In this document: one piece after another, positions 512 to 4,515 of the stretch
How the letters are laid out: the number at the start of each line of letters is the position of its first letter
Position numbering within the stretch: position 1 is the stretch's first letter
IMG/VR virus record: IMGVR_UViG_2675903429_000009
Strand: one strand, 5' to 3'
Source: a virus
Lineage: Duplodnaviria; Heunggongvirae; Uroviricota; Caudoviricetes
DNA length: 4,515 bases
Notes under the pieces: generated by a model
The model's input: only the letters and a program-made list of their open reading frames with translations
What the model was told of the DNA's origin: nothing
The model's database searches: none
Position numbers and translations under genes: made by a program

Positions 512-1396
512 TCATCTNNNNNNNNNNNNNNNNNNNNNNNNNNNNNNNNNNNNNNNNNNNNNNNNNNNNNNNNNNNNNNNNNNNNNNNNNNNNNNNNNNN
601 NNNNNNNNNNNNNNNNNNNNNNNNNNNNNNNNNNNNNNNNNNNNNNNNNNNNNNNNNNNNNNNNNNNNNNNNNNNNNNNNNNNNNNNNNNNNNNNNNNNN
701 NNNNNNNNNNNNNNNNNNNNNNNNNNNNNNNNNNNNNNNNNNNNNNNNNNNNNNNNNGTCATTACCGTCAAGATAAGCCACCTCAATTGTGTCCGTTCCC
801 TGTGCTGAAAGCATGTACCATTGCTTATCACTGACTTCATCAAGGCGGGGATCGACAATAATATCCAGTTGTTTGTGGTACGGGTTATATGAACCACTGT
901 TTGTATCGGCACCGAAAGGCGTGGTTGAGTTAACCATTTGCAACGCTCTGTCTTCCAGAGCCGCAGGAACAAGAAGGAATTTTGGCACAATATTCAGCAC
1001 CTCACCGTTTTCATCCCTCTGTGTGCGCATTGCACGGCGTGCAATGCCAAGCCCTGTAGTGCTGACTCCGTTATCAATATCATTTCCGTGTTTTTTGCTG
1101 AACAGCGGTATACCGTCAGAAAGCTTTGTGTTTCCTGTCAGCACCAGATGAACCAGATTACCCACCGTTCTGGCGGCTGCTCGCCCCATTGCCTGTGGGA
1201 TAACTGTTAACTGATTCAGGTCATCGTTAATAATCGCCTGTCGGGTAATGCTGAAAATATTTCCGTAAGTTGCCAGCGCGATTGGTTCGCCACGGTCACT
1301 GGTGGTGATGTATTTATATTCCGCGCCTTCCGGCACTTTGTTTAATGTAGAGAAGCCATTCAGGCCAACACGACGTGCCTCATGGAAGTTTGACAA
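512..1396 (-). CDS. probable phage major capsid protein (3' end uncertain because of the N gap)
   Basis: Long minus-strand ORF (at least 213 real codons before the gap) immediately downstream of, and overlapping, the ClpP-family prohead protease gene, which is the typical protease-capsid gene order. Size is consistent with an HK97-fold capsid protein lacking its own delta domain. The only start codon in frame is TTG (1396-1394) behind an AAAAAAGG purine run; alternatively the ORF is reached by -1 frameshifting from the protease gene. Capsid identity rests on context and general sequence character, not a verified homology hit. Confidence 0.6.
   Translation of the reverse strand: MSNFHEARRVGLNGFSTLNKVPEGAEYKYITTSDRGEPIALATYGNIFSITRQAIINDDLNQLTVIPQAMGRAAARTVGNLVHLVLTGNTKLSDGIPLFSKKHGNDIDNGVSTTGLGIARRAMRTQRDENGEVLNIVPKFLLVPAALEDRALQMVNSTTPFGADTNSGSYNPYHKQLDIIVDPRLDEVSDKQWYMLSAQGTDTIEVAYLDGNDXXXXXXXXXXXXXXXXXXXXXXXXXXXXXXXXXXXXXXXXXXXXXXXXXXXXXXXXXXXXXXXXXXXXXXXXXXXXXXXXR
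518..757. other. assembly gap (240 N) inside the capsid gene
   Basis: Run of N from 518 to 757. Reading-frame continuity across it is unknown, so the 3' end of the capsid ORF (stop at 512-514 in the nominal frame) cannot be trusted. Confidence 0.99.
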
Positions 1397-2505
1397 TGAA
1401 CCTTTTTTCGTCCACTGGCGGAACGTTTCGCCGCTGTGTTCACGGATTTTTCAGCACCACCAGCAAGGATATAAGTAAAATCGCTGCTGCTGTGGGTGAA
1501 TGCCGCGTTTACTATCTGCGAGCGTGTGCTGTAGCTGCCTGTGCTTATGCCGCGATGGGTTAATGATGCCTGTGCCATATCGAAAAGGCTCATCATGGCG
1601 TAAGGGTTGCCGCGTTCTGCCTGTTCATGTCCCAGACGCGCATTAAGCCCCTGACGCATTGCATCGCCGGTTATGTTGCCGTTATCCGTGTACGCGTAGT
1701 AAAGATTTGCGGGGGTGGTTTTGTTTGTCGGTGTCGATTCTTTACCCATAGTGAGTAAAAGGCGTTCGCGTGCATCCTCAACGCTACAGCCTGAATCAGC
1801 AAGACAACTTATAGCCAGGTCGTTATATCTTCCATTGAACGTGCCAAACAATTCACGTATCCCGTTGAGTCGTTCCTGTTCTCCGCTGCCAGTTTTCTGG
1901 CTGATCATGCTTTTAATATTTTCCGGCATATTCGAAAAATCTCCGATTCGTTTTGATTCAATTCTGGCCATTGCTGTAATCGCGGGTATAACCTCATCTG
2001 CGAAGCCATTAGCCTTACACTCATTGCCATCCATCCAGGTTTCCGCCTCCATCATGGCGGTGATTTCCTGTTTGCTCCTGCCCGTTCTTCCGGCGTAGGT
2101 TTCCGCCATCGTGTCGCCCAGCTTGTCCATCAGGTCAGCAAAGCGGCGAACGTCGCCCGACACTCCGGCAGTAACACCACGGGGGGCATGTATCATCATC
2201 ATCGCGTTTTCAGGCATAACGATGTGATCGCCACACATGGCAATAAACGAGGCCATAGAAGCCGCCATGCCTTCAATGTGTACAATTTTCTTTGCCGGAT
2301 GATTTTTCAGGGCGTTATAGATAGCCAGCCCTTCAAAGATGTCGCCACCAGGTGAATGGATGCGAAGATGGATTTCAGGCACATTACCGCACGCGTTGAT
2401 CTCGTCAGTAAGTGCCGATGCTTTTACACCGTACCCGCCGATCTCGTCATAAATGCGTACATGTACAACATCAGCCATAGCCTTAATGGAAAACCATGTT
2501 TTCAT
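1360..2505 (-). CDS. ClpP-family (S14) prohead serine protease with a ~180-aa C-terminal extension (scaffold-like or N-terminal capsid region)
   Basis: The translation contains the ClpP-like catalytic motifs GMAASMAS (Ser) and MMIHAP (His), comparable to ClpP GQAASMGA and MIHQP. ATG at 2505-2503 is preceded by AGGAG 9 nt upstream and overlaps the stop of the upstream small ORF (ATGA). 381 aa. Confidence 0.85.
   Translation of the reverse strand: MKTWFSIKAMADVVHVRIYDEIGGYGVKASALTDEINACGNVPEIHLRIHSPGGDIFEGLAIYNALKNHPAKKIVHIEGMAASMASFIAMCGDHIVMPENAMMMIHAPRGVTAGVSGDVRRFADLMDKLGDTMAETYAGRTGRSKQEITAMMEAETWMDGNECKANGFADEVIPAITAMARIESKRIGDFSNMPENIKSMISQKTGSGEQERLNGIRELFGTFNGRYNDLAISCLADSGCSVEDARERLLLTMGKESTPTNKTTPANLYYAYTDNGNITGDAMRQGLNARLGHEQAERGNPYAMMSLFDMAQASLTHRGISTGSYSTRSQIVNAAFTHSSSDFTYILAGGAEKSVNTAAKRSASGRKKVHCQTSMRHVVLA
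1402..1408 (-). other. candidate -1 ribosomal frameshift slippery heptamer A_AAA_AAG
   Basis: Seen in sequence: the minus strand reads CGA AAA AAG GTT in the protease frame (codons R-K-K-V near the C-terminus), i.e. the X_XXY_YYZ heptamer A_AAA_AAG in the correct phase. The -1 frame continues as GGT TCA TTG TCA AAC TTC CAT..., which is exactly the capsid ORF frame. Confidence 0.4.
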
Positions 2506-2799: not shown

Positions 2800-2893
2800 G
2801 TCATACCAGCAAAAGAATTGACTAATTATTGCCACGCCAGCACAATTAAGACTCATCATTTCGGTAGTGGCAGTATCCTTTGTCGCTGACAAA

Positions 2894-2928
2894 GCGCCTC
2901 CGGTGGCACCATCGGGGCGCTTTTTTTT
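2894..2928 (+). terminator. strong intrinsic terminator, plus-strand orientation
   Basis: GC-rich hairpin GCGCC(T)CCGGTG-GCAC-CATCGGGGCGC (2894-2920, about 11 bp with one bulge and one G-U pair) followed by T8 (2921-2928). An alternative hairpin GGCGC-T8-GCGCC (2916-2933) is followed by TGTTTTTT. In minus-strand orientation the hairpin is followed by only three U residues, so it is mainly a plus-strand terminator. Confidence 0.6.
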
Positions 2929-3126
2929 GCGCCTGTTTTTTGTAAATGCTTTCGGGAACGTTCCGGCGTCGAACAAAAAACAACCTAATTCGACACTAAA
3001 AATTTTTATTTTGCCATATATCAATAACTTAAACTGGTGGTGATGGTGACATAAAAATCAAAAAATACGCCTTTTTCCGCGAACCGCCCGCCCCGTGGAC
3101 AGGCCACCCCCACCAGGAGTACCTAC

Positions 3127-3149
3127 AAAAAAGCCGGATTGCTCCGGCT
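3127..3149 (-). terminator. intrinsic terminator of the orf81-ssb operon
   Basis: 7-bp stem AGCCGGA/TCCGGCT with loop TTGC (3132-3149). On the minus strand it is followed by UUUUU (3127-3131) and starts 15 nt after the ssb stop codon. Confidence 0.55.
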
Positions 3150-3164
3150 TCTGTCACTCGTTGC

Positions 3165-3587
3165 TTAAAACGGTATGTTATCCCCGTACGGATCATCATT
3201 CCCCGCCTGTTGTTTGGCCCTGTTCAGTGCATCAGTGGCCTGCCCCTGTTGGCCTTTTTTACCGCCCGGTCGCGCCGTTCTGGCACTGATTACACTGTCT
3301 GCGATAACCTGCCAGCCCTGCCGCGTTTCTCCGTTCTGGCCTGTCCACTGGCTTACCTGCATGTTACCCGCCACGCTCACCAGCTCGCCTTTCTGGTGCT
3401 TTGCCAGTGCGTCAGCCTGTCTGCCAAACGCCAGGACGGATAACCATATCGTCGCCGTTCCGTCATCTGCCTGGCTGCACGGCAGGGGAACCGCCATACT
3501 CGCCATCGTCATTTGCGTACCCTTGCTGGTGGTCTTTAACTGCGGGTCAGCCACCAGCCGCCCGTAAGCCGCTATCTGTGCTGTCAT
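3165..3587 (-). CDS. ssb: single-stranded DNA-binding protein (SSB family), 140 aa
   Basis: The N-terminal OB-fold region aligns by eye with E. coli SSB (IAAYGRLVADPQLK versus VILVGNLGQDPEVR; WLSVLAFGRQADALAKHQKGELVSVAGNMQVSQWTGQNGETRQGWQVIADSV versus [50 protein letters not shown]). A Gly/Gln-rich linker and an acidic tail ending NDDPYGDNIPF match the conserved SSB DDDIPF tip. GGAG Shine-Dalgarno sequence; the ATG overlaps the upstream stop (ATGA). Confidence 0.85.
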   Translation of the reverse strand: MTAQIAAYGRLVADPQLKTTSKGTQMTMASMAVPLPCSQADDGTATIWLSVLAFGRQADALAKHQKGELVSVAGNMQVSQWTGQNGETRQGWQVIADSVISARTARPGGKKGQQGQATDALNRAKQQAGNDDPYGDNIPF

Positions 3588-3829
3588 GCTGTCTGCTCTC
3601 CGGTTTTAACGTTGATGGTTGTCACCTGTTCCGCTTCGGCAATCTCCCGTTCTGTCAGCGTGGCAAAGTTTGCCGCCGTCGTGGTCATGAATGCGCTTAT
3701 CAGTTCGGGATGTGCTTTCGCGTATCCTTCCCCGGCGTTGCGGTCGATGATTTTTATCGCCACCCTCAGCCAGTGTTCTGTCAAATCAAGGGCGTGAGAT
3801 TGTGGTTTTTTGGCGTGCTTCGTTGTCAC
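3584..3829 (-). CDS. hypothetical protein (81 aa) co-transcribed with ssb
   Basis: GTG start at 3829-3827 with GAGG about 9 nt upstream; stop overlaps the ssb ATG. No family recognised from the sequence. Confidence 0.5.
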   Translation of the reverse strand: MTTKHAKKPQSHALDLTEHWLRVAIKIIDRNAGEGYAKAHPELISAFMTTTAANFATLTEREIAEAEQVTTINVKTGEQTA

Positions 3830-3874
3830 AGGCTTTACCTCACAGCAATAAAATAAAATTTTTGCATTTTAACC

Positions 3875-4103
3875 CTTCACCTGTTCACCTTTTGCAATTT
3901 TCCCTTTTTATTCATGATGTTAATGGGTTAACAGTTTCACAAAAACTATTCACCAACTGTTCACCACTGTTCACCCTTAAAGCTCAATAAAGAATCAAAA
4001 AGGTGAACAGTGAATAGTTTGGTGAACAGTTCATAAATAACTGTTCACCCTATAATATACTGATATAAAAGACATTTATTGCAGGGTGAACAGTGGTGAA
4101 CAG
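3875..4103. repeat. iteron array / putative origin of replication (P4-type TGTTCACC octamers)
   Basis: Seen in sequence: perfect CTGTTCACC at 3881-3889, 3957-3965, 3967-3975 and 4041-4049; perfect inverse GGTGAACAG at 4002-4010, 4021-4029, 4085-4093 and 4095-4103; degenerate copies at 3875-3881, 3947-3954 and 4009-4017. Adjacent copies are spaced 10 bp apart. The array is flanked and interspersed by AT-rich stretches (3841-3870, 3895-3950, 4051-4080). From memory, TGTTCACC is the phage P4 type I iteron bound by alpha protein at ori and crr. Confidence 0.75.
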
Positions 4104-4132
4104 TTATTCCATAAGTTTAATTTTTTCCATCG

Positions 4133-4429
4133 TCATTTGTGACCTATTGCACATGATGGCATCCAGTCTTCTGAATCCTCTGTCAGGGTCACATTTGAAC
4201 GCAAACCGTGCTTCGTTTTCCGTTTCATATACTCCCTGCCATATTCCGCCATTGCCCCCGGCATATCTTTACCGAAGCGCGTCAGTGTTACAGGTTTACC
4301 GAATCCGTGTGCCCTCATATATGCCAGATAGGCGTGATAAAGATACCTGCGCGGACTGAACGGAATAATTTCGGCATTACCCACTAACAGACCATCACAC
4401 ATTACCGACGACATGAGGTGTACTGGCAA
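4133..4429 (-). CDS. small ORF resembling the C-terminal region of phage/plasmid primase-helicases (possible gene fragment)
   Basis: The translation contains YLYHAYLAYMRAHGFGKPVTLTRFGKDMPGAM, which matches by eye the conserved Y-x-x-Y-x-x-W-x-(5-6)-x-P-x-S/T-x-x-x-F-G motif found near the C-terminus of P4-alpha/D5-type primase-helicases. The start is weak: TTG at 4429 or ATG at 4414, neither with a clear Shine-Dalgarno sequence, and an in-frame TAG lies at 4439-4441. The two other minus frames are open to the window edge, so a frameshifted longer gene is possible. Confidence 0.4.
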   Translation of the reverse strand: MPVHLMSSVMCDGLLVGNAEIIPFSPRRYLYHAYLAYMRAHGFGKPVTLTRFGKDMPGAMAEYGREYMKRKTKHGLRSNVTLTEDSEDWMPSCAIGHK

Positions 4430-4515
4430 TAGCGGACACTACCATTTGTTCTTTTTTTAAGCAGCCATCTGATGATATTTTTCCCTGAAGGCTGCCGGGG
4501 AGATATTCCCCAGAC

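Follow-up and report, generated by a model that had tools for sequence, protein, structure and literature searches.

The 4,515-nucleotide stretch of viral DNA analysed here (the window) contains a cluster of short repeats that very probably constitutes the replication origin of an EcCICFT073-type phage-inducible chromosomal island (PICI), operated by an initiator akin to the alpha protein of satellite phage P4. Origin function is assigned by homology with P4 and with a PICI of a second iteron class (class B, defined below). The array falls within a known kind, that of PICI/P4-type iteron origins, and the current understanding of such elements is not overturned. The main value of the assignment lies in annotation, which can now identify the 230-bp cluster of intergenic repeats as a PICI origin and name the binding domain that goes with it. 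Modest new points are the compact ori1-plus-crr arrangement, the apparent mapping of specificity to a short C-terminal hairpin and possible cross-talk with P4-like elements. An earlier sequence-only reading had proposed an initiator-bound origin with P4-type iterons in a replication module, which is borne out here; its additional proposals of a promoter overlap and of autoregulation by the initiator found no support.

The iteron array and its counterparts in satellite phage P4

Eight exact copies of the 9-mer CTGTTCACC span positions 3881-4103, four on each strand (plus-strand starts at 3881, 3957, 3967 and 4041; minus-strand starts at 4002, 4021, 4085 and 4095), and none occurs elsewhere in the 4515 bases. 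The chance expectation for the window is 0.04 copies, and none of 200 dinucleotide-preserving shuffles reached eight. In number and position the copies agree with the earlier count of eight perfect 9-mers, four per orientation, within about 230 bp. Its description of copies 10 bp apart applies to two pairs, 3957/3967 and 4085/4095, the remaining spacings being 11, 19-21, 34 and 43-44 bp, while its figure of three degenerate copies has to be raised to four (3873, 3926, 3946 and 4009) when up to two mismatches are allowed. The spacers of the array are 69-77% AT as opposed to approximately 50% in the rest of the window. The reading had also suggested counting the 9-mer across a complete replicon; a circular relative of 10,790 bp (L091, discussed below) contains ten exact copies, nine of them inside 223 bp, where 0.07 would be expected for the whole replicon. 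Across ten arrays with this iteron (class A, see below) from six genera, 81% of the iteron columns are invariant compared with 34% of the spacer columns, some of these arrays being close relatives and the columns not being independent. A search of the whole window against Rfam at gathering thresholds gave no match, and a literature search for the string TGTTCACC retrieved unrelated primer sequences only. Two plus-strand open reading frames that cross the array (3802-3990 and 4093-4359) were considered as genes and rejected for want of supporting evidence.

The array resolves into two modules, both assigned to the minus strand. The gene-proximal module (4002-4103) is ori1-like in spacing, orientation and alignment and comprises iterons at 4095-4103, 4085-4093, 4041-4049 (in the opposite orientation), 4021-4029, 4009-4017 (degenerate) and 4002-4010. 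It includes a 35-bp, 77% AT spacer at 4050-4084 where the DNA is predicted to unwind; of all 25-mers in the region 2800-4480, the one at 4051-4075 is the least stable, with a dG of -23.7 against a mean of -33.7 (sd 3.7). A central AT-rich spacer (3976-4001, 77% AT) separates the two iteron sets. The distal module (3873-3975), similar to a single crr unit of P4, roughly mirrors the proximal one and has iterons at 3967-3975, 3957-3965, 3946-3954 and 3926-3934 (one mismatch each), 3881-3889 and 3873-3881 (degenerate); the copy at 3926-3934 is exact in relatives.

The octamer TGTTCACC, which the sequence-only reading had named as the P4 type I iteron, is indeed annotated in the P4 GenBank record (NC_001609) as 'ori type 1 repeat' in both the origin and crr, the cis-required region. 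Six such repeats are annotated in the P4 origin (9310-9413) and ten in crr (4291-4590); eleven of them are exact TGTTCACC, against 0.35 expected, and five of the six origin copies contain the full 9-mer. P4 therefore has the same iteron 8-mer, and mostly the same 9-mer, as the window. The alignment to the P4 ori and crr regions that the reading had called for shows the proximal half to be collinear with ori1 (P4 9296-9426), the invariant alignment columns being the iterons, and the distal half to align with crr units. Spacings are 10/43/21/19 bp in the proximal module and 10/43/22/11/10 bp in P4 ori1, and both are oriented alike with respect to the initiator gene. Measured from the initiator stop codon in the direction of the gene, with arrowheads giving orientation, the iterons of the window lie at 31>, 41>, 84<, 105>, 124>, and then at 158<, 168<, 179(, 200), 244<, and those of P4 ori1, in the same orientation, at 18>, 28>, 71<, 93>, 104>, 114>. 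Both thus begin with two copies, followed by 43 bp of which an AT-rich spacer takes up 35 bp, an inverted copy, approximately 21 bp and further copies. The ori1 arrangement of six iterons near helical spacing beside an AT-rich region of about 35 bp is found in the window with one of the six iterons degenerate, and the AT content of the spacer is 77% here versus 83% in P4. The distal module aligns with both of the 120-bp P4 crr units over approximately 80 bp, including the T-rich spacer, and has spacings of 44 and 8 bp compared with 43 and 9 bp in crr.

P4 replication needs crr in cis and starts at ori1, not at crr (GenBank annotation; PMC2777425; PMC6092414). In position the array corresponds to crr, which in P4 likewise follows the initiator gene directly on its 3' side, and the crr units align with the outer half of the array. 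It might accordingly be asked whether the array serves only as a crr-like cis-acting enhancer or copy-control ('handcuffing') site while initiation takes place elsewhere in the island, as in P4. We consider this very unlikely, given that the gene-proximal half matches ori1 and not crr, and that intact relatives carry neither a second iteron cluster anywhere in their islands nor a 120-bp duplication. Furthermore, in EcCICFT073 the homologous gap and the initiator gene were jointly sufficient for plasmid replication: a plasmid with pri and the putative ori replicated, whereas delta-ori and delta-pri versions did not (PMC6092414). Judged by these alignments, the gene-proximal half of the array is an ori1 homologue and the outer half a crr-like unit.

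The initiator gene and the island

The array is located directly downstream of the initiator stop codon, and 4133 is the end of a minus-strand Pox_D5 or 'primase C-terminal' ORF. This is the adjacent ORF that the reading had likened to a primase C-terminus, and it proves to be the C-terminal origin-binding domain of a P4-alpha-like initiator. The remnant (4133-4417, minus strand) comprises the last 94 codons and the stop codon, is assigned by homology to a winged-helix origin-binding domain, and is 98.9% identical to residues 511-598 of the intact initiator of a relative (L001, in E. coli RM10410). The L001 initiator is a 605-residue 'DNA primase family protein' in which Pfam identifies the domains D5_N, DUF5906 (SF3 helicase) and Pox_D5. 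It shares 50% identity with P4 alpha over 457 residues, with 65% in the helicase and 48.5% in the origin-binding domain, and its last 100 residues match the structure of the P4 origin-binding domain (PDB 1KA8) with E=2.4e-24, which identifies an alpha-type winged-helix binding domain; only this domain survives in the window. AlphaFold models of the fragment in the window had a pLDDT of 39 from the single sequence and of 53 from a 21-sequence alignment, and a Foldseek search with the binding-domain model returned 1KA8 only, at TM 0.32. Since these models are too poor to use, the homology rests on the sequence match to 1KA8.

The N-terminal part of the initiator is of a different kind from that of P4 alpha. 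Zn_Ribbon_Prim and Toprim domains were not found by Pfam in the intact L001 protein, and the approximately 145 residues that stand in place of the P4 Zn-ribbon/Toprim primase (residues 1-145; L001 16747-17181) have no Pfam match even at E<=10; their only match is phrog_2850, a family whose function is not known. Intact class-A islands have an extra exact iteron within the coding sequence of the initiator (L001 15930-15937; L091 4263-4271).

With its D5_N domain, SF3 helicase and C-terminal winged-helix origin-binding domain, all of them homologous to P4 alpha, the island initiator would bind the CTGTTCACC iterons through the origin-binding domain, and the two opposed sets of sites would assemble it on both sides of AT-rich DNA. 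Melting of the duplex would follow, most likely in the 35-bp spacer at 4050-4084, where the helicase would be loaded, and the SSB that the island itself encodes just downstream would coat the unwound strands. We infer the binding of the initiator at the array, the site of melting and the order of these events from the homologies set out above.

Judging by gene content and gene order, the element is an EcCICFT073-type PICI and not P4. The L001 island is approximately 10.5 kb in length with DNA 93.8% identical to the window, and its genes are arranged in the order int, HTH/AlpA, BRO-N, icd-like, DUF4222, initiator, array, orf81, ssb and ClpP-protease/capsid fusion. A second intact relative, L091, is the 10,790-bp circular record NZ_CP148328.1, a 'plasmid' of E. 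coli Z1323HEC0475 that consists of one such island. The record may represent an island that has excised and replicates as an episome, or else an assembly of excised circles, and is suggestive of excision and replication induced by a helper phage; GC skew on the 10.8-kb circle was uninformative. Helper-phage-induced excision, replication and packaging have been demonstrated only for EcCICFT073 itself (PMC6092414). Both relatives have the unidirectional int-alpA-...-pri-rep order with the origin immediately 3' of pri-rep, and their sizes of about 10.5-10.8 kb fall within the PICI range (~10-15 kb); the window retains only the 3' end of pri-rep together with the origin, orf81 and ssb. The origins of E. 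coli PICIs are defined by two iteron sets that flank an AT-rich region immediately 3' of the initiator gene (PMC6092414), and the array likewise has two iteron sets around AT-rich DNA. The remnant in the window adjoins clpS, and cspD-clpS is listed as a PICI attachment site (EcCIIHE3034, EcCI18098). A P4-like satellite was considered as the identity of the element and rejected, in view of an initiator without the Zn-ribbon/Toprim primase, a gene order of the EcCICFT073 type and the absence of sid, delta, psu and epsilon, none of which is annotated in L001 or L091.

The copy in the window is damaged. Homology to intact initiator genes stops at 4417, and from approximately 4413 to the end at 4515 the sequence is that of IS600, an IS3-family insertion sequence, the end of which interrupts the initiator gene; this segment has 100% matches in thousands of records. 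Matching records are annotated as 'IS3-like element IS600 family transposase', and both OrfA and OrfB are present in one of the loci compared (L004). The identical truncated initiator ORF stands for 143 database member sequences, and the IS600-truncated allele is thus widespread. Draft contigs that carry it break at the IS, and the junction is absent from complete E. coli genomes among the matches listed. The origin itself is intact, yet IS600 has deprived it of its initiator gene, which makes this copy an orphan. With only the last 94 codons remaining, no cognate initiator is encoded in cis, and replication activity in cis from the window is excluded on its coding content. As the gene is destroyed, firing would take place only if a TGTTCACC-specific (class-A) initiator were supplied in trans. 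Elsewhere in the window, a gene for a fusion of a ClpP-like prohead protease and a major capsid protein (512-2505, minus strand), which is intact in L001 (629 aa), is split into ORFs of 381 aa and of roughly 252-294 aa that overlap near 1360-1396. The split suggests a frameshift and decay of the island. A run of masked bases (N) occupies 519-767, within the capsid part of the fusion gene.

Genes downstream of the array and transcriptional control

The replication-module context put forward by the sequence-only reading is confirmed, since the array lies between the 3' end of the initiator gene and the genes orf81 and ssb, all of them on the minus strand. The first gene downstream, orf81 (3584-3829), is a small conserved gene of the family phrog_1231, whose function is not known. 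It is followed by ssb (3165-3587), which encodes the single-stranded DNA-binding protein of the island (Pfam SSB, E=3.9e-16). The reading had placed the array over the promoter of an orf81-ssb operon, and one may thus ask whether the repeats are mainly operators of this promoter, bound by the initiator or by another factor that regulates transcription. The end of the array lies 44 bp upstream of the orf81 start, and nothing resembling a terminator was detected between the initiator gene and the array. A weak candidate promoter is present on the correct strand, with a -35 element (TGAACA) at 3887 inside an iteron, an 18-nt spacer and a TG-extended -10 element (AAAAAT). However, a consensus scan of 3100-4200 found no minus-strand sigma-70 promoter and no terminator, negatives that are weak because the same scan missed the hairpin after ssb, and the best sites in a lenient scan had 8 of 12 matches, one of them overlapping the iteron at 3881-3889. 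Moreover, the same kind of array occurs without orf81-ssb downstream in vB_KppS-Ant, in P4 and in Yersinia class-C loci. A primarily regulatory function for the repeats is hence very improbable. The array may have a secondary regulatory role, which would not be its main function. The promoter overlap is not sustained by these scans, nor is autoregulation by the initiator, which may nevertheless operate.

Two terminator-like hairpins, one after ssb (approximately 3127-3151, minus strand; fold z = -2.7) and one at 2898-2934 on the plus strand, sit between ssb, a cos-like site and the next gene. The region 2971-3131 shares 90.7% identity with the intergenic stretch that separates lysis from terminase genes in phage 1720a-02, and 76% with the right end of the mEp460 genome. 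It includes a cosN-like core at approximately 3077-3096 (minus strand), which reads ACG/GGGCGGGCGGTT/CGCGG compared with ACG/GGGCGGCGACCT/CGCGG in lambda cosN, a match that by itself has E=0.29. The region 2971-3131 is a probable candidate for a helper-phage cos site, in keeping with the packaging of PICIs by lambdoid helpers.

Iteron classes, initiator specificity and relation to known origins

Iteron classes were called de novo from about 80-84 loci with relatives of the initiator, from Enterobacterales and Zobellella, by taking the commonest 8-mers in the 500 bp after each initiator gene with no motif assumed. Three classes emerged, A (TGTTCACC), B (TGTCTACC) and C (TCTCCACC), with the common pattern T.T..ACC, and the ori1-type layout recurs with TGTCTACC and TCTCCACC iterons in other lineages. 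In 84 loci the iteron class tracks a short hairpin segment that follows 'EYGxxY' in the binding domain: KRK-TKHG-IRSN and variants in class A, RKKSTKGN-MRSN in class C, and RAKCTKGPDKGRVITN or TRKVKGVTQTN in class B, which is therefore served by two very different hairpins. The initiator of one class-B locus (L009) is 95-100% identical to that of the island through the helicase and only about 45% identical in the last ~45 residues. Nine Pantoea loci (L071-L079) have a class-A-like segment and no iteron cluster within 2.5 kb on either side. From this covariation, a segment of about 15 residues appears to determine iteron specificity within the pattern T.T..ACC. In winged-helix proteins of this type the DNA-contacting wing is located after helix alpha-3, and two conserved tyrosines mark alpha-2 (PMC2777425). 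From its position in the sequence, behind helix alpha-3, and the general winged-helix topology (PMC2777425), the specificity segment is presumably the wing.

These comparisons also bear on the question of whether the repeats are bound by a different protein of the island, as integrase arm sites, AlpA operators, a partition centromere or terminase sites. Short repeats in two orientations are indeed found in attP arms, parS sites and cosB as well. Across the 84 loci, however, the iteron class does not track Int, AlpA or orf81, and the iterons co-vary with the C-terminus of the initiator only. EcCIIHE3034 (L094) and the class-A circle L091 have the same attachment site, integrases that are 97% identical and identical AlpA proteins, and yet both the iterons and the initiator of EcCIIHE3034 are of class B. 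The annotation of intact relatives shows no partition genes, and a separate cos-like site is located approximately 800 bp away. Recognition of the repeats by one of these other proteins is extremely improbable. As L094 and L091 match in integrase and AlpA but not in the initiator/origin cassette, the replication module has been exchanged as a unit. The small gene orf81 is 88% identical between class-A and class-B islands, including its EcCICFT073 counterpart despite the different iteron there; class-C loci and vB_KppS-Ant lack the gene.

The same iteron and homologous origin-binding domains are found in two families of satellites, and initiators and origins may therefore be interchangeable between them. 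Tentatively, and with the odds rather against it, PICI and P4 initiators and origins could substitute for one another in vivo, so that orphan origins such as the one described here would be fired by, or would titrate, the initiator of a co-resident satellite. If true, cross-activation or incompatibility between satellite families would be expected. The array was found in 646 of 5426 complete E. coli genomes (~12%) and P4-like elements in 1007 of the 5426; the helpers are lambdoid phages for this class of PICI and P2 for P4-like elements. A specificity segment of about 15 residues, if confirmed as such, would furthermore provide a simple handle for orthogonal replicons.

The 2018 PICI paper reported no more than a distant homology between Pri-Rep and P4 alpha, arguing for independent evolution (PMC6092414). 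On the basis of origin layout, helicase and binding domain, the replication modules of PICIs and P4 are clearly homologous. P4 keeps ori1 and crr approximately 4.5 kb apart, with crr as a duplicated 120-bp unit placed directly 3' of the initiator gene, whereas in the window, with the array in that same position, both modules are contiguous within about 230 bp. As a modest point, the split ori1 and crr of P4 would thus correspond to the two adjacent halves of one compact PICI origin.

Among characterised PICIs, EcCICFT073 shares the gene order of this element (int, alpA, icd-like, DUF4222, initiator, an interval of ~290 bp, a small ORF and ssb), and its 288-bp gap after the initiator has the same array layout, with two iteron sets flanking AT-rich DNA. 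It differs in its iteron, which is TGTCTACC and not TGTTCACC, and in its initiator, which is 66% identical to this class in the N-terminal region and only 33% in the origin-binding domain. Replication of EcCICFT073 has been shown by experiment, while that of the class in the window is predicted from homology. The origins of SaPIs and other Gram-positive PICIs are stated to have an identical organisation (PMC6092414). These islands differ in lineage and in the pattern of gene orientation. A wider parallel exists with the iteron origins of plasmids and phage lambda, in which short initiator-binding repeats are arrayed in roughly helical register beside an AT-rich unwinding element. In contrast to initiators of the Rep or lambda-O type, which recruit the host helicase, the initiator of this island is itself an SF3 helicase with a winged-helix domain.
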